Program-made: the position numbers and the translations under genes | Shown: in pieces, positions 1 to 64,000 of the stretch | Position numbering within the stretch: the stretch's first letter is position 1 | Layout: every line of letters begins with the position of its first letter | Source: an uncultured Elusimicrobia bacterium | GTDB lineage: Bacteria; Elusimicrobiota; Elusimicrobia; 2-01-FULL-59-12 | Assembly (NCBI GenBank): GCA_963702895.1 | Contig: OY969767.1 | Location: 2,208,001 to 2,272,000, forward strand | Reading direction: 5' to 3' | DNA length: 64,000 nucleotides | The notes under the pieces: generated by a model | Database searches by the model: none | What the model saw: only the letters and a program-made list of their open reading frames with translations | Told to the model about the DNA's origin: nothing

Positions 1-1134
1 GACACCGAAAGCATAACAGCCGGCCGAGCAAAAAGAAAAATTCGCGGCGCTGTCATCGAGATAATTGGTTCCGCCACCTGTTGCCGTGCCGGCAGTATTG
101 ATGTTGACGGCATTAAAAACAGTGTCGTTTTTTCGATTGTTCCAATAATAAGAATCCGAAACATGTTGCGGCTGGCCGTCGGGCGATGTGACGGGTGGCG
201 AAATGGAATCGTCATATTCTTCTGAAATGCGAGAGTAAACACTGCCGCTGGTCAGAACCTTGTTCCAAAAGACAAGCGCCCTTCCACCACGCTGACCCAG
301 GAAAGGGGAAGCTGCATACGAACCTCCATTGACGAGATTACCGTAAACCTCAACCCCCATGGTGGCGCTGACCCCGGAAGGTTGATTCCCATGTTCATCA
401 AATAACGGGAAAACGCTTTTAGAGAGATTGTAAGTATTGTATCGATTGGCATATCTCCCTCCGTGACCACCCGTATCCATGGTCTGCGAGGTGTTAAAGA
501 CGTTGTCCTCGTAATATAAATTGTCCGCGGTTCCATATTTAAACGTGAGGTTCGTCCAAGCTGCTGACTGCAACCCCAGGTTGTCAAAATGCACCGCTCC
601 AGTGAAGGTATTGTGATCCACCACGCCATAGACAGGCCCTGAGATCATCATCGTCGCAAGAGGAGTCCATTGGCAGTTCACAAAATTATTATGGTCAATT
701 CTGACTTTATTGACCGGAAAGAATACATTCGTGTTGGCTAAGAGCAAGGCGGGCGAGGTGTTGTTCAGATCAAAAGTAAAACCAGTTACTCTGAAGGGTT
801 CATTCGATGCCGGGTTCGTGGGAAGATAAGAAATCAAATACGAAGTATTTGGCATGTTCGATCGAATGAGTGTATGGCCTATGCCTGTGCCTTGAAAGAT
901 GACACCCTTCTTAATCTCAAGAGTGCTAGTCCATACGCATGAACCGGCGGGCACGAGCACCGTGTCCCCAGATGCTGCTGCCGTAATCGCCGCCTGCACG
1001 TCGGTCTGAGAACAACTGGCGGCGGTGACCGTGGCCGCCTGAACGGCCAACGGCGAAAATAGAAAATAGACAATAGACAGACCAGATAATCCATTTGCTA
1101 TTGTCCATTGTCGCCTTTGGCCGTTGACGTTCAC
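1..1134 (-). CDS. Secreted parallel beta-helix protein, sixth array member (runs off window; absent from ORF track)
   Basis: GTG at 1134 overlaps the TGA of the upstream gene (GTGA 1131-1134). Manual translation gives MNVNGQRRQWTIANGLSGLSIVYFLFSPLAVQA-ATVTAASCSQTDVQAAITAAASGDTVLVPAGSCVW...RIDHNNF...YGTADNLYYEDN, the same module as in the paralogs. Confidence 0.88.
   Translation of the reverse strand, partial: MNVNGQRRQWTIANGLSGLSIVYFLFSPLAVQAATVTAASCSQTDVQAAITAAASGDTVLVPAGSCVWTSTLEIKKGVIFQGTGIGHTLIRSNMPNTSYLISYLPTNPASNEPFRVTGFTFDLNNTSPALLLANTNVFFPVNKVRIDHNNFVNCQWTPLATMMISGPVYGVVDHNTFTGAVHFDNLGLQSAAWTNLTFKYGTADNLYYEDNVFNTSQTMDTGGHGGRYANRYNTYNLSKSVFPLFDEHGNQPSGVSATMGVEVYGNLVNGGSYAASPFLGQRGGRALVFWNKVLTSGSVYSRISEEYDDSISPPVTSPDGQPQHVSDSYYWNNRKNDTVFNAVNINTAGTATGGGTNYLDDSAANFSFCSAGCYAFGV
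1056..1110. repeat. Heptamer-armed hairpin (AATAGAC/A units) inside a signal-peptide coding region
   Basis: aaatagaaaatagacaatagacaga ... tccatttgctattgtccattg, imperfect inverted arms. Confidence 0.65.
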
Positions 1135-60607: not shown

Positions 60608-60743
60608 ACACACCCATATAGAGTGGAATAGTCCTTCCGACAAGTATTTTTGTTGTAAAGAATTTGAGGTTAATACAGACTGATTTTTAGACTATTTTTG
60701 AAACCGGCCGTCTGTTTCGTGAGATTTTGGTGAGCTGCAACAG

Positions 60744-60873
60744 CTTGGGGACGGTCTCCAGACTTCCGGCGACCGCCCGCCGGATGTCTTGGCGGACGTT
60801 CCTCACGATCTCACGGTTGCGAGCAGCGAGACAAGATAGGCAACACCGTGAGATCGTGAGGAACGTCCCCAAG
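60744..60873. repeat. REP-like hairpin (GGGGACGTTCCTCACGATCTCACG family) with an insertion in the left arm
   Basis: cttggggacg[...ccgccggatgtcttggcgg]acgttcctcacgatctcacgg ... ccgtgagatcgtgaggaacgtccccaag. Confidence 0.8.
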
Positions 60874-60880
60874 GCGTAAG

Positions 60881-60997
60881 GCCAAGAGTGCTGGGGGTAG
60901 GACGTGAGCTCGTCGAAGCGAGCTCACGCCTACGTAGGGCGAAGCCCGCCAGATTTATCCGCCTTCGCTCGGCATGCTGCCGCGCAGCTTCGGCGGA
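60881..60997 (-). pseudogene. tRNA-Tyr 3'-half copy with hairpins inserted at the T-loop and anticodon loop
   Basis: Matches 61019-61076 except that the T-loop is replaced by cgtgagctcgtcgaagcgagctcacg; breaks at the anticodon into tccgccttcgct...gcttcggcgga. Confidence 0.8.
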
Positions 60998-61026
60998 CAA
61001 GCAGTTTACGCACGAGAGGCCAAGAG

Positions 61027-61110
61027 TGCTGGGGGTAGGATTTGAACCTACGTAGGGCGTAGCCCGCCAGATTTACAGTCTGGTGCATTTGACCGCTCTG
61101 CCACCCCAGC
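61027..61110 (-). tRNA. tRNA-Tyr(GTA)
   Basis: GCTGGGG acceptor stem, CCAGA-CTGTAAA-TCTGG anticodon arm, long variable arm, GGTTCAAATCC; CCA not encoded. Confidence 0.95.
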
Positions 61111-61144
61111 ACTCTTGGCCCAAAGAGCATTCTGCATTTGCTTG

Positions 61145-61202
61145 TCCCCCGCAGCCTTGGCGAAGGGGGAACCGCTCTGCCACCCCAGCACCCTTGGCCC
61201 AA
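61145..61202 (-). pseudogene. tRNA-Tyr 5'-fragment copy ending in a hairpin at the D-loop
   Basis: 61171-61202 repeats the leader plus GCTGGGGTGGCAGAGCGGT, then tcccccttcgccaaggctgcggggga (minus strand). Confidence 0.75.
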
Positions 61203-61506
61203 CACGGTTCTGGTTTTCAACTGCGCGGGCGTTATTATACAACGCCCTACGAAGGCGTGAGCTTGTCGCTTTTTTCGTGTCGCCCTCCCCCTCCTTCAAC
61301 GAACAACGGAAGCCCAGAAGAGCGGCAGCCCTGAACAGCGGCAGACCCGAGGGGCAGCGAGTGGCCCTTCTCTTTGAAAGTACCTCTCATCGCCATTCCG
61401 GCATGCCGACGTTCGGGTTTGCCGCCGCTCTTGTCCCCATGCAGTGGGTCCCCCAACCCTTCACAAGGCCTCCCTGCGTCCGAGATATCCTTCCTTTCAT
61501 GGAAAG

Positions 61507-61544
61507 TTAACAAGCCTGTAACAATGCGTTAATCGTGCTGTAAC
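61507..61544 (+). promoter_or_regulatory. Four direct pentamer boxes at 11-bp spacing upstream of the PorV-like gene
   Basis: ttaac-N6-gtaac-N6-ttaat-N6-gtaac. Confidence 0.5.
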
Positions 61545-61581
61545 CTTCGAGGGTCATACTTATCGCGACAGGGCTATAGTT

Positions 61582-63081
61582 ATGAAAACAATCCATAGAG
61601 TCTATCACGGGAAGGCCGGCCGTTTTCGCCCCGTTCGACGGTTCACAAGGGCGTCGTGGGCCGTTCTTTTGTCTTTTTCCATCGCGATCTCCACGCTTCT
61701 TCCCGTCTCAAGTTTCGCGGCAGGCCCGGGGACAACGAGCGGCGATCTCCTCAAGGTCCCGGTCAGCGCCCGCGCGATCGGCATGGGCGAAGCCTACACG
61801 GCGCTCGCCAACGATTCGTCCGCCCTCGACTGGAACCCCGCGGGCATGTCCTTTATGCAGCAGAAGGAAGCGGCCTTCATGCACTCATCGCTCTACGAAG
61901 GCATCCATTATGAGCGCCTGGCCTTTGCCGCCCCTGGCGACAGCTATTCTTACGGAGCGTCCATGTCCTATCTGGGATATGGCTCGATGGAAGGCTTCGA
62001 CAACAACGGAATCCCCATCGGCGATCAGTCCGCCTACTCGTATCTTTTGACCGGCGGCCTGGCCTCGATGGTGCACGACCGCCTGTCCCTGGGCGTGACC
62101 GCCTCTTACCTCCGTCAAAAACTGGCGGACACCTCCGCCGGTACCGCGGTCTTTAATACCGGTATCCTCTACGAGCTCGCCTCGCGCCCGTGGGGCGGAG
62201 CCTACCGGCTGGGATTTTCGGCCTTGAACCTGGGACCGGGCCTCGAATTTGTCTCCGAGTCGAACCCGCTCCCTCGCAAATACAGGTTCGGCGCTTCGGC
62301 CCTGCATCTCAAGGATTTGCCCCTGAATCTGGCGGCGGACGTTCTCATGCCCAATGACAACTCGACGACGTTTTCCATGGGTTCGGAATATTGGTTTAAA
62401 GAGATGATCGCGCTGCGCTTGGGCTACGCGGGCTCGCGCGATGAGGGGAGCGGTCTGCGCCTGGGCTTCGGCTTTCGTCACCGGGATATTCTCTTCGACT
62501 ATGCCTTTAGTGACCAGGGGGACCTGGGATCGGCGCATCGCTTCGAGATGATGTTCCGCTGGGGGGACCGGATGCATCCGCTCAACCGCGAACAGCGCGC
62601 GATCCTCAAGGAAGCCAAGCGCGCGGGGACGGAGCAGGATTTTGTGCAGGAGATCCTCACGCTCAACGAGATCTTAAACACGGACCCGACCAATGACCGG
62701 ATTTTGCGAAAGATGATTCTAGCGCATGAAGCGATGCTCAAGAACGAGCTCCAGGACGTGATGACGGCCGACGGCCGACCAGCCCCTCCGGAAGAGGAGA
62801 TTCCATCGCCTGAGGAATTCGCGCTGCAGGACATGGTGCCCGGGCAGCAGGCGATCGTGAGCAACACCGTGCCTGCCAATTTTGACCCTGCCGACCCGCT
62901 CGGGCTCGGGAACCTCCCCGACACCCTCAGCCATCAAGCCCCCGCGGCGACGCCCGGCGTTGTGAGCGCGCCTTCGGCCGTGCCGGCCGTCGAGAAGGCC
63001 GCCGCGAGCTTCGATGCAGACATCTCCGCCGGTCCGGAATCCGACGGGATCCTGCTCAAACCCAGCGACATCTACAACTAA
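61582..63081 (+). CDS. PorV/PorQ-family (UPF0164) outer-membrane beta-barrel with a C-terminal low-complexity extension
   Basis: LKVPVSARAIGMGEAYTALANDSSALDWNPAG signature; amphipathic strands ending FDYAF..GDLGSAHRF. Confidence 0.85.
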   Translation: MKTIHRVYHGKAGRFRPVRRFTRASWAVLLSFSIAISTLLPVSSFAAGPGTTSGDLLKVPVSARAIGMGEAYTALANDSSALDWNPAGMSFMQQKEAAFMHSSLYEGIHYERLAFAAPGDSYSYGASMSYLGYGSMEGFDNNGIPIGDQSAYSYLLTGGLASMVHDRLSLGVTASYLRQKLADTSAGTAVFNTGILYELASRPWGGAYRLGFSALNLGPGLEFVSESNPLPRKYRFGASALHLKDLPLNLAADVLMPNDNSTTFSMGSEYWFKEMIALRLGYAGSRDEGSGLRLGFGFRHRDILFDYAFSDQGDLGSAHRFEMMFRWGDRMHPLNREQRAILKEAKRAGTEQDFVQEILTLNEILNTDPTNDRILRKMILAHEAMLKNELQDVMTADGRPAPPEEEIPSPEEFALQDMVPGQQAIVSNTVPANFDPADPLGLGNLPDTLSHQAPAATPGVVSAPSAVPAVEKAAASFDADISAGPESDGILLKPSDIYN

Positions 63082-63168
63082 GGGACGTTCCATCACAAAC
63101 GTCACAAACTCCTGCATCTTTGCGCTTGGTGCTCTGAAGTTTGTGACGTTTGTGATGGAACGTCCCTT
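63080..63168. repeat. REP-like hairpin directly at the PorV-like stop codon
   Basis: Same arms as 37709-37802 with a different loop. Confidence 0.9.
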
Positions 63169-63200
63169 CGTCGTATGGACTATGAGGGATGCGGGCTTTT

Positions 63201-63273
63201 AGCCGACGATAGGACTCGAACCTACAACCTGCTGTTTACAAAACAGCTGCTCTACCAATTGAGCTACGTCGGC
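63201..63273 (-). tRNA. tRNA-Thr(TGT)
   Basis: GCCGACG acceptor stem, GCTC/GAGC D-stem, GCTGT-TTTGTAA-ACAGC anticodon arm, GGTTCGAGTCC; CCA not encoded. Confidence 0.95.
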
Positions 63274-63292
63274 TAAAAGCCCGCCACCACTA

Positions 63293-63399
63293 AACCTGCT
63301 GCATACAAAACAGCTGCTCTACCCATTCCCGCCACACGACGATCGGGCCCGCCATAGCTCGCCACTCTTCTGGCGAGCGCCGGCGGGAGCTACGTCGGC
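63293..63399 (-). pseudogene. tRNA-Thr 5'-half copy with a ~60-bp CCCGCC..GGCGGG hairpin in the D-loop
   Basis: Matches 63226-63273 apart from the insert 63328-63387 and 3 substitutions. Confidence 0.8.
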
Positions 63400-63421
63400 A
63401 AAATCTTCAAATACCAAGAAC

Positions 63422-63820
63422 TTATGCATGGCTCTTGAAACGACTGAGATCAAGAATATGCTTGTCATAATCAATGATAGTTCGGCAACGCCGTAGAAAA
63501 TTTAACCCAATGAAACCGCTGATCTCAGGAATCTCTGGAATATCTTGGCAGGTGACAGCAACGTGATGTGCATAAGCACTTCCAATCCGCATCTCAAGAA
63601 CAAGGACGGACGGAATTTTAATGCTGCCATTGGCCGTGATAATCGTCACCTTTCGATGTGACCCACTTAATTTATAGCCCAGGCTAATAGCGAGTTCAGT
63701 GGAAATTGAACAGTATTCTGCTCCTGTATCAAGCAAGAGGTCGGCTTTCTGAACGGTTTTCGGCCCCGTGATAACCGATGGAAGAATGATAGGCCCTGCA
63801 GGTTGAAGCGGAAATCTCAA
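63422..63820 (-). CDS. Retropepsin-like (clan AA) aspartyl protease
   Basis: LLDTGA, ITANG and GFIGLNFL motifs; TTG start overlaps the upstream stop. Confidence 0.88.
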   Translation of the reverse strand: MRFPLQPAGPIILPSVITGPKTVQKADLLLDTGAEYCSISTELAISLGYKLSGSHRKVTIITANGSIKIPSVLVLEMRIGSAYAHHVAVTCQDIPEIPEISGFIGLNFLRRCRTIIDYDKHILDLSRFKSHA

Positions 63821-64000
63821 AAGAAGAAACCTACGCCACGCGGGACAACCGGCCCGTTAAACGTAATGTAAACGTTATTCAACCCCTTGCGATCAATAAA
63901 ATCATGAATGGATTTTCTTGTCTTCGCAGTGCCCAACACATCTCCTTCAACAGCGGGTTTCTCTCTTCGAATCTTGAAAACCATCCACTGATTTTTAAAC
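63817..64000 (-). CDS. Small protein (DUF5678-like) coupled to the aspartyl protease; partial
   Basis: Manual translation ...FKNQWMVFKIRREKPAVEGDVLGTAKTRKSIHDF...YITFNGPVVPRGVGFFF*; TTGA overlap. Confidence 0.6.
   Translation of the reverse strand, partial: FKNQWMVFKIRREKPAVEGDVLGTAKTRKSIHDFIDRKGLNNVYITFNGPVVPRGVGFFF

Follow-up and report, generated by a model that had tools for sequence, protein, structure and literature searches.

In bacteria, tRNA genes are landing pads for large islands that carry their own integrase, and several kinds of much smaller element are also known. The Rickettsia palindromic elements and the Correia and NEMIS (Neisseria miniature insertion sequence) families of miniature inverted-repeat transposable elements (MITEs) are tiny, non-coding and hairpin-folding, make short target duplications and can sit within genes. 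The insertion sequences (ISs) IS1397 and ISKpn1 target the loops of palindromic units, and intervening sequences within rRNA helices are removed by RNase III. Elements mobilized by HUH enzymes are not known to duplicate their target on insertion. In Escherichia coli, the tyrT-rtT locus has tandem repeats behind a tRNA gene, each of which includes the tRNA 3' end. Families of repetitive extragenic palindromic (REP) sequences tagged with GTAG or CGTC are described in the available part of PMC3733652, and the available part of PMC13096335 describes SegB, a free-standing GIY-YIG homing endonuclease from the tRNA clusters of T-even phages, together with amplification via microhomology with the tRNA. 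Here we analyze a 64,000-nucleotide stretch of DNA from an uncultured Elusimicrobia bacterium (contig OY969767.1 of assembly GCA_963702895.1, positions 2,208,001 to 2,272,000; hereafter the window), in which the genes for tRNA-Tyr and tRNA-Thr are accompanied by partial copies of themselves that are broken by short hairpins. The explanation that we put first, with about as much doubt as confidence, is that the partial copies are spare tRNA leftovers that were later colonized by small palindromic elements, with selection keeping the intact gene clean.

By both ARAGORN and Rfam, the window contains just two intact tRNA genes, which are encoded on the minus strand. Throughout, tRNA positions are numbered with the ARAGORN start as 1, and negative numbers denote the leader. 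Partial copies were located by seed-and-extend comparison of each tRNA plus 25 nt of flank with its own surroundings and by reading of the sequence (Table 1). They are not chance matches, because a 14-mer match within 1.4 kb of a tRNA is expected by chance only about 3e-4 times per gene. A previous sequence-only reading of the region had described a 3' copy of tRNA-Tyr with hairpins at the T-loop and the anticodon loop, and 5' copies of both tRNAs with hairpins in the D-loop. We recovered all of these and located the hairpins of the Tyr 3' copy; the Thr insert proved to be of nested hairpins, with a further hairpin in one of its loops, at the edge of D-stem and D-loop. One detail changed: the Tyr 5' copy, thought to end at its hairpin, resumes beyond the insert and stops only at the junction of the D-stem and the anticodon stem. 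The copies lie 12-68 nt from the intact genes, the longest gap being that of the Tyr 3' copy, and they are single, not tandem. Between the intact tRNA-Tyr and the 40-nt hairpin on its 3' side are 28 nt of trailer and spacer.

The same reading had placed all four breaks at loops, with an intact gene kept each time and no integrase nearby, and these points also stood. All four breaks touch loops, a count that is not significant on its own, and both genes are present in uninterrupted form. There is no tyrosine recombinase in the window or in the region's list of open reading frames (ORFs), and the genome's four all lie at least 245 kb away. Besides tRNA, Rfam identified no family in the window, save sub-threshold chance hits to microRNA hairpins. 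We rejected an intron-containing, split or permuted tRNA gene: uninterrupted Tyr and Thr genes exist, the interrupted copies lack parts (Tyr positions 28-35 are missing and the Thr copy ends near position 49), and no Rfam intron family was found.

Table 1. Features of the tRNA-Tyr and tRNA-Thr loci and related genes. Coordinates are positions in the window, except those with the prefix G000:C1, which refer to the source genome.
Feature	Coordinates	Strand	Evidence or remarks
Intact tRNA-Tyr(GTA), without encoded CCA	61026-61110	-	ARAGORN; Rfam tRNA 64.7 bits
Tyr 5' copy, positions -12..19 (leader, acceptor 5' strand, 5' part of D-arm)	61171..61202	-	32 nt, 1 mismatch
D-loop insert of Tyr 5' copy, between 19 and 20: 30 nt with hairpin	61141..61170	-	genome-unique
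Tyr 5' copy resumed, positions 20-27	61133..61140	-	8-nt exact match right after insert
40-nt hairpin abutting the anticodon-loop breakpoint of Tyr 3' copy	60958..60997	-	sequence reading and fold; genome-unique
Tyr 3' copy, positions 36-64, starting within the anticodon loop	60929..60957	-	29 nt, 1 mismatch (variable loop)
26-nt perfect hairpin (10-bp stem, 6-nt loop) replacing T-loop positions 65-70	60903..60928	-	RNAfold -17.2 kcal/mol; genome-unique
Tyr 3' copy, positions 71-94 (T-stem 3' strand, acceptor 3' strand, 9 nt of trailer)	60879..60902	-	24 nt, 0 mismatches
Inverted fragment: Tyr positions 51-64 and one arm of the T-loop hairpin	61243..61263	+	21 nt, 95% to 60921-60941 reversed; 14-nt inverted match
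Intact tRNA-Thr(TGT), 18-bp leader-trailer plus acceptor helix	63200-63274	-	ARAGORN; Rfam 74.7 bits
Thr 5' copy, positions -2..14	63387..63403	-	17 nt, 1 mismatch
59-nt insert at D-stem/D-loop edge of Thr 5' copy: degenerate double-hairpin repeat	63328..63386	-	RNAfold -32.9 kcal/mol
Thr 5' copy, positions 15-49	63293..63327	-	35 nt, 3 mismatches
Trailer half of 10-bp leader-trailer helix of intact tRNA-Tyr	61016..61025	-	partner 61111-61120; 17 bp perfect including acceptor stem
Leader half of tRNA-Tyr leader-trailer helix	61111..61120	-	covariation in 10 genomes
Retropepsin-like aspartyl protease ORF upstream of Thr 5' copy	63425..63856	-	PF13975, E 1.6e-12
Small GIY-YIG ORFs or remnants beside tRNAs	G000:C1 205875-206093, 580611-580847, 1652969-1653178, 1700934-1701170, 1813166-1813693		
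Dispersed GC-rich hairpin repeat copy downstream of Tyr locus	60740..60795		blastn-short 86-94% elsewhere, including beside tRNA-Arg(CCT)
MITE-like long hairpin, GGGGACGTTCC...GGAACGTCCCC family	60794..60868		missing from the corresponding site in G003
Another GGGGACGTTCC-family MITE-like hairpin, immediately downstream of tRNA-Thr	63083..63165		88-91% at four other genome places

Adjacent partial copies are not confined to Tyr and Thr, which leaves the sequence-only reading standing on this point; they recur across the source genome (G000; 2.72 Mb in one contig, 57% GC, 48 tRNA calls). Counting direct partial copies of at least 14 nt that lie within 700 bp of a tRNA and are not another tRNA gene, we found them at 29 of the 48 calls, upstream at 18, downstream at 21 and on both sides at 10. 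Upstream copies were always 5' parts, and downstream copies were essentially 3' parts. A single event as the source of two-sided copies was considered and dropped, given that independent occurrence would already yield 7.9 such loci among the 48. The 3' pieces that follow Gln, Val and Phe are arrayed in tandem, repeating every 82, 120 and about 116 bp, respectively. Even one of the ARAGORN tRNA calls, an 87-nt "tRNA-Glu" (G000:C1:1666618-1666704), is itself interrupted, being a 5' copy (1..50) of the neighboring tRNA-Glu(TTC) with its leader; the intact gene beside it is enclosed by a 22-bp flank helix.

Copies of this kind are also found in relatives. A script of the same type gave 7 of 33 tRNAs in a genome of the same family (G004) and none of 32 in a genome from another family of the class (G026). 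Five relatives (G002, G005, G008, G009 and G010) have their own hairpin-bearing partial copies of Tyr or Thr, broken in the anticodon, D or T loops, and a more distant metagenome locus (L029) likewise carries its own hairpin-bearing Tyr copy. Since the relatives' copies at Tyr and Thr differ, the process is recurrent in the family and is not one inherited oddity. G003, which belongs to the same genus, lacks about 300 nt of the G000 locus and has no tRNA-Tyr copy that reaches 13 nt. A search of metagenome contigs for same-species variants, using an exact 28-nt tRNA-Tyr word, returned six loci, none of them from the same species.

Where the inserts sit in the cloverleaf was assessed on 35 curated, non-redundant interruptions. 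This set excludes array repeats of one event and junctions spanning the intact gene, as well as about eight cases seen by eye in T- or anticodon loops, near Arg(CCT), Met, Asp, Thr(CGT), Arg(CCG), Glu(CTC), Pro(TGG) and an Arg/Lys cluster. Under a generous rule, by which any position of an ambiguous range that touches a loop base counts as loop, 30 interruptions touched a loop, one fell in a linker and four fell in stems (Leu(CAG) between 60 and 59, Pro(TGG) between 13 and 12 and between 65 and 64, and Phe between 40 and 42). The T-loop alone received 17 of the 35, against an expected share of 8/74 (P = 2.5e-8), and all of its inserts lie at one mid-loop point, TTC/RA (the slash marks the insertion point), which we take to be between standard tRNA positions 56 and 57. 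Thus, the idea that insert positions follow the tRNA structure holds insofar as the positions are non-random and the T-loop is strongly favored, but the general excess in loops is modest. The preference for this exact T-loop site could stem from sequence as much as from structure.

Most T-loop inserts are double hairpins of 42-44 bp, with two GC stems of 6-7 bp and 8-nt loops. In these elements, which we call type 1, the first loop starts with ACAC or AGAC and the second ends with GTGT or GTCT, so that the element is two-fold symmetric; the ends have the form yCCGmCACAC. A second hairpin type has 9-nt loops with CTAC- or GTAG-like words. At 21 of the 35 interruptions the flanking tRNA pieces overlap by 2-3 nt, and the overlapping dinucleotide tracks the target, being CG in TTCG loops and CA in TTCA loops. 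This overlap looks like a target-site duplication and argues against an HUH mechanism of the RAYT (REP-associated tyrosine transposase) kind. The type-1 double hairpins accordingly show the two marks of a MITE, terminal inverted repeats and a short target duplication; the Tyr inserts do not, as the D-loop insert has no overlap and the T-loop is replaced. The genome also has the many short GC-rich palindromes and inverted doublets expected of REP sequences and their doublets (REPINs), with 119 adjacent pairs and 92 type-1 ends. The Thr insert contains a degenerate type-1 hairpin, 21 nt of which match double hairpins in the T-loop copies of Phe and Asn at 90%; the three Tyr hairpins, unique in the genome, do not belong to these repeats.

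These repeats are tied to tRNA genes in position and in junction sequence. Although 96 of the 119 pairs lie far from tRNAs, the other 23 lie within 1 kb of one, a zone that makes up 2.8% of the genome (P = 3e-13). Likewise, 22 of the 92 type-1 ends are preceded by GTTC[GA], and 21 of these 22 are within 1 kb of a tRNA. The junction of GGTTCR with a type-1 hairpin occurs 19 times in the source genome, 13 times in G007, four times in G001 and three times in G005. These four genomes belong to one family; among 140 genomes from other families, six gave a single hit each. In the full-text literature outside subscription journals, we found no account of hairpin elements in the T-loops of tRNA-gene remnants. 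We class the inserts among REP- or MITE-like elements whose target is unusual and which act on tRNA leftovers present throughout the lineage.

Under the explanation that we put first, the partial copies would be redundant leftovers of the Tyr and Thr genes, produced either by a short local duplication or by a small cassette that duplicated part of the gene; both routes would leave one whole gene by construction. Such leftovers would pile up at most tRNA genes in this Elusimicrobiota family. Small GC-rich palindromes of REP or MITE type, as single hairpins or as 42-44-bp double hairpins, would then colonize them, landing preferentially at the unpaired apex of tRNA arms and, in the T-loop, at TTC/RA, often with a 2-nt duplication. 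Selection would remove insertions from the functional copy, and hairpins would hence be seen only in spare pieces. No special mechanism is needed for retention of the intact gene: it always survives a tandem duplication, and an insertion into the sole functional copy would be lethal.

The sequence-only reading had proposed that the insertion process either generates or exploits local duplications. Two comparisons put the copy before the hairpin, which supports exploitation and does not bear out generation. The first is with G005, where a homologous unit has the retropepsin ORF and, about 10-20 nt on, a Thr 5' copy whose empty site falls exactly where the copy in the window has its 59-nt insert. 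Because the D-loop of this homologous copy is uninterrupted, the comparison shows the Thr copy to have preceded its D-loop hairpin. The second concerns Tyr. We examined three runs of DNA contigs, in small shares, in which most pieces were tRNAs of other organisms. In one of them (X1), a 155-nt contig with a depth of 2.2 matches 60794-60957 with 1 other letter differing, minus 20 of the 26 letters of the T-loop hairpin. The six hairpin letters that it keeps equal the size of the replaced part of the loop, and the contig diverges from the source genome at both ends. Judged by this alignment, the Tyr copy probably preceded its T-loop hairpin as well, and the contig lends weak support to a recent gain of that hairpin.

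As for the copies themselves, in G010 a 40-nt leader together with Tyr positions 1-36 is cleanly duplicated in tandem, and the tandem arrays of the source genome repeat the trailer too. Because these units include leader or trailer, we infer a short tandem duplication with one breakpoint in the gene as one source of copies. Cassette insertion would be a second source, and we prefer neither for Tyr and Thr, since no cargo or remnant of it is left there. A local origin is favored by the best matches of the remnant fragments, which point to the adjacent gene in 50 of 58 cases and to another tRNA gene in eight; a view of the remnants as foreign alleles was rejected on the same count. The remnants near Gly(TCC), Gly(CCC) and Gly(GCC) are closer to other Gly genes than to their neighbor. 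T-arm remnants near Pro(TGG), Met and Ala(TGC) (G000:C1 1652390-1652800, 1396425-1396485 and 581000-581050, respectively) have T-stems that differ from those of the adjacent gene at 2-3 pairs, with pairing kept.

Several observations weigh against colonization of spare copies by mobile palindromes. The general excess of interruptions in loops is small (30 seen, 23.5 expected at random, P = 0.012), and 4 of the 35 are within stems. A blastn-short search of the source genome found no relatives of the three Tyr hairpins, whose mobility is thus presumed, and the one in the T-loop replaces the loop instead of being simply inserted. No transposase could be assigned to the hairpins; the only Y1_Tnp hit in the source genome is a truncated frame of 89 amino acids, in a search that did not include DDE families. 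At four loci examined in relatives, no hairpins flank the Y1 genes. Outside tRNA loci, only 9 of 91 double hairpins lie within the loop of a larger hairpin; compared with 1.4% in shifted controls, such nesting is enriched, but it is not the rule. The evidence from X1 is a single contig of low depth. A Thr 5' remnant lies upstream of the intact gene in G000, G002, G003 (by eye), G005 and G009, which span three genera, and persistence in five genomes is long for junk. Finally, the divergent T-stems that still pair hint at another origin or at selection on the hairpin.

Y1_Tnp genes were present in 20 of 30 other genomes searched and in 9 of 10 within the family. A RAYT as the mobilizer was nevertheless rejected, considering the truncated gene of the source genome and the lack of flanking hairpins at the four loci examined in relatives. 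One Y1 transposase-like ORF of 247 amino acids, in G004, lies about 90 bp downstream of tRNA-Tyr (locus L013 1449-2189), and its truncated homologue in the source genome is at genome position 390719-390889. A test of complementarity between hairpin flanks at a 3-nt offset, which is too strict for 7-nt loops, gave no excess (3/114, compared with 1.7% in controls), whereas its relaxed version showed a moderate one.

Hairpin insertions also occur in RNase P RNA. The gene (G000:C1:1392247-1392888; locus L023 1297-1938) measures 642 nt against a model of 367 positions and has large hairpin insertions in several helix loops, one of which is assembled from the CTCAGAG-type tandem units that also make up the hairpin following tRNA-Val. 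Loop inserts thus occur in functional RNA genes as well, where selection alone would restrict them to loops.

The lack of relatives for the three Tyr hairpins would be accounted for if hairpins had grown in place, through template switching at the inverted repeats of tRNA genes that extends stems and makes palindromes; the same process would create complementary leaders and trailers. The T-loop hairpin reads like a 5-bp T-stem continued by 10 perfectly complementary pairs around a TTCGA-like apex, and hairpins are nested in hairpin loops both in the Thr insert and in a MITE-like copy at genome position 2236020. Leaders and trailers are complementary even though their sequences vary considerably: those of both tRNAs differ between G000 and G003, and those of Tyr differ among 10 genomes. 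In the source genome, 19 of the 48 tRNAs have a leader-trailer complementarity of at least 10 bp (mode 17 bp), which extends the acceptor stem by about 10 bp and is found mostly at genes without an encoded CCA. For the tRNA-Tyr helix, 93.5% of cells in the 10 genomes were paired, 14 of 17 pairs had changed on both sides and none of 500 shuffles reached the score; the position three pairs out was unpaired in 5 of the 10 genomes. Such covariation is, however, equally expected from selection on an RNA helix. Moreover, most inserts elsewhere belong to recognizable repeat families with 2-nt overlaps, which points to insertion, and no templated donor for the Tyr hairpins was found nearby. Growth in place therefore appears quite improbable to us.

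The helix itself raises a separate, testable question about pre-tRNA processing. Our search of the full-text literature, with the coverage given above, found no report of 10-bp leader-trailer helices. According to the available part of PMC9433436, pairing of the leader with the 3' end inhibits a binding step of bacterial RNase P.

Genes located at tRNA loci bring in another possibility, namely that the copies are scars of small selfish cassettes, with a GIY-YIG nuclease, a toxin-antitoxin pair or the like, which would have entered tRNA genes and brought or duplicated a piece of the gene, so that one copy stayed whole; the displaced piece would have been disabled by a hairpin at or near the point of entry, and the cargo at Tyr and Thr would since have been lost. 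We regard this scenario, including these details, as unlikely, though it has much to draw on elsewhere in the genome. Six GIY-YIG ORFs or remnants, several of them with tRNA pieces on both sides, lie at five tRNA loci, namely Asn (two), Gln(TTG), Ala(GGC), Ile/Ala(TGC) and Arg(TCT)/Lys(CTT), and 6 of the 9 small GIY-YIG loci are within 400 bp of a tRNA (P = 1e-9). After each of the two Asn units comes an Asn 3' copy whose T-loop holds a double hairpin, and the Ala(GGC) and Gln(TTG) units have a tRNA 5' fragment beyond the ORF. The intact Thr gene of G005 is separated from a Thr 5' copy (-3..38), which ends in the anticodon loop, by a small ORF and a BrnT toxin gene (PF04365, E 2.5e-23; locus L014 1483-2200). 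G000 and G005, which represent two genera, each have a retropepsin-like ORF immediately upstream of the Thr 5' copy, the two proteins being 85% identical. The L029 locus combines its Tyr copy, a 5' one, with an ORF downstream of the intact gene that is a putative GIY-YIG by eye. There is also a precedent in phage T6, where SegB drives tandem amplification of a tRNA-Tyr segment (available part of PMC13096335).

Evidence from the window and from the remnants runs the other way. Searched to a distance of 900 bp with a profile built from the genome's own copies, Tyr and Thr showed neither a GIY-YIG ORF nor a remnant of one, and the copies there are only tens of nucleotides from the intact genes (12-68 nt, as given above). 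G010 has a plain tandem duplication that includes the leader and no cargo, 50 of the 58 remnants are local copies, and the great majority of double-hairpin pairs (the 96 noted above) lie far from tRNAs. Action of the nuclease on tRNA-gene DNA, in turn, is a presumption of this scenario.

Further details of these genes are of interest in their own right. The reading frames of the two tandem GIY-YIG ORFs after tRNA-Asn extend into the partial copy of Asn with its double hairpin, and the GIY-YIG ORF in the Ile-Ala spacer, between the two tRNAs, has an in-frame TGA. At the Thr locus, the GC content of 63404-64000 is 44%, compared with 59% for the window. The low-GC stretch (63404-64060) holds the protease ORF and an ORF of 69 amino acids without a Pfam match, between an rRNA-methyltransferase-like gene and the Thr 5' copy. 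The retropepsin ORF recurs in G005 and not at the other Thr loci compared.

Taken together with the double hairpins, the cassettes allow a bolder and rather doubtful proposal, that of a two-part parasitic system of tRNA genes. In its first part, the 42-44-bp elements may recognize folded or palindromic tRNA-arm DNA, at one point of the T-loop and at other apexes, with a 2-nt duplication. Its second part may consist of the cassettes that carry tRNA pieces, with an Slx1-like GIY-YIG nuclease, a BrnT toxin or a retropepsin-like protease. The conserved 10-bp leader-trailer helix, present at about a third of the tRNAs, may be the host's answer, helping the right copy to fold and be processed amid look-alike pieces.

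The persistence of the Thr 5' remnant upstream of the intact gene in five genomes could also suggest a working role at the RNA level for the interrupted copies, which would be transcribed along with the tRNA and serve as processing or folding signals, decoys for tRNA-targeting nucleases or regulators. By eye, we found a TGTATAAT motif ahead of the Tyr 5' copy in G000 (61241..61234), and one also precedes tRNA-Tyr in G003; because the motif lies upstream of the copy, the Tyr 5' copy is probably part of the transcript. Some remnants also keep T-stem pairing through double changes. Nevertheless, a function of this kind is very unlikely in our estimation. The Tyr copies are absent from G003 and G002, of the same genus, the retained part and the inserts differ in every genome, and Rfam recognized nothing beyond tRNA and the sub-threshold microRNA-hairpin hits. 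A consensus promoter scan had no site at the Tyr locus; a terminator consensus scan gave terminator-like sites at the level of shuffled sequence.

Finally, the Tyr 3' copy, which runs from the anticodon loop through the 3' end into the trailer, resembles an attachment (att) site, and the copies might be remnants of integrase islands that entered the anticodon loop or T-loop and were later lost, leaving displaced 3' ends. An att repeat reportedly has the shape of a displaced tRNA 3' part, as Williams is said to have described in 2002. Elsewhere in the source genome, an integrase gene (2517030-2517503) does adjoin a tRNA-Ser 3' fragment. We nonetheless give this origin almost no credence for the window: no integrase lies within 245 kb, no island separates gene and copy, only the 68-nt gap, and the periods of the tandem arrays are just 82-120 bp. 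While the Tyr 3' copy has the shape of an att repeat, the upstream 5' copies of Tyr and Thr do not, and 18 loci with 5' copies stand beside 21 with 3' copies, in agreement with the earlier remark that 5' copies are unlike a 3'-end att duplication. The tRNA-Ser fragment beside the tyrosine-recombinase gene (G000:C1:2516793-2517503) matches all four Ser genes, lies 15 kb from the nearest tRNA-Ser and looks like an ordinary island attachment remnant.

The remaining features of the region are longer hairpins and one protein-coding gene. The GGGGACGTTCC...GGAACGTCCCC hairpin family, represented twice in the window, has 14 paired copies in the genome, of 66-190 bp, with two stem variants and variable loops; the loop of the copy at 2236020 encloses several more hairpins. 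The gene at 61582-63078, which separates the two tRNA loci, encodes a PorV/UPF0164-like outer-membrane protein. The Thr and Tyr genes are adjacent in most relatives, and G000 and G003 have the PorV/UPF0164-like gene between them.

If the T-loop preference does reflect recognition of folded tRNA-arm DNA, it would add a new mode of target selection to those of miniature mobile elements and provide a natural setting in which to study the survival of essential single-copy RNA genes under attack. On the practical side, the spare pieces yield false or odd tRNA calls, such as the 87-nt "tRNA-Glu", and hamper the assembly of tRNA loci.

Compared with known systems, the repeats most resemble REP sequences, the mosaic elements built from them (bacterial interspersed mosaic elements, BIMEs) and REPINs, which are associated with RAYTs of the Y1 HUH class: like these, they are short, GC-rich hairpins of about 20-22 nt, multicopy, arranged in inverted doublets and clusters, and mostly intergenic. 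They differ in the 2-nt flank overlap at most T-loop inserts, in the GTAG-like word, which lies inside the loop and not at the 5' end, and in the source genome's having only a truncated Y1 frame. There is also a single favored DNA target in the T-loop, and none is mentioned in the available part of PMC3733652. In contrast to the Rickettsia palindromic, Correia and NEMIS elements, the target here is the apex of a tRNA arm in spare copies, and the duplication is CG or CA, not TA. DNA at a hairpin apex and extended helix tips, as in the RNase P RNA of this genome, recall IS1397, ISKpn1 and the rRNA intervening sequences, but the inserts here are hairpins of 26-60 nt in non-functional tRNA pieces, not full ISs or inserts in functional rRNA.

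The copies likewise have partial counterparts. The Gln, Val and Phe arrays are akin to tyrT-rtT, whereas Tyr and Thr have solitary copies, placed on either side of the gene and broken by hairpins, and most tRNA genes are affected rather than one operon. The GIY-YIG nuclease genes beside tRNA genes at other loci of the genome recall SegB; however, the available part of PMC13096335 concerns phages, with a unit that holds the whole tRNA and no hairpins, and the Tyr and Thr loci here have no nuclease gene. Breakpoints in the anticodon loop and T-loop, together with a displaced 3' copy downstream of a restored gene, are shared with integrase att sites, from which the locus differs in having no integrase or island, spacers of tens of nucleotides and 5' copies that are equally frequent. 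The tRNA genes of this free-living bacterium, about 60% of them, appear as hotspots not for large islands but for tiny events: duplications of 20-150 bp, hairpins of 26-60 nt and mini-cassettes without an integrase.

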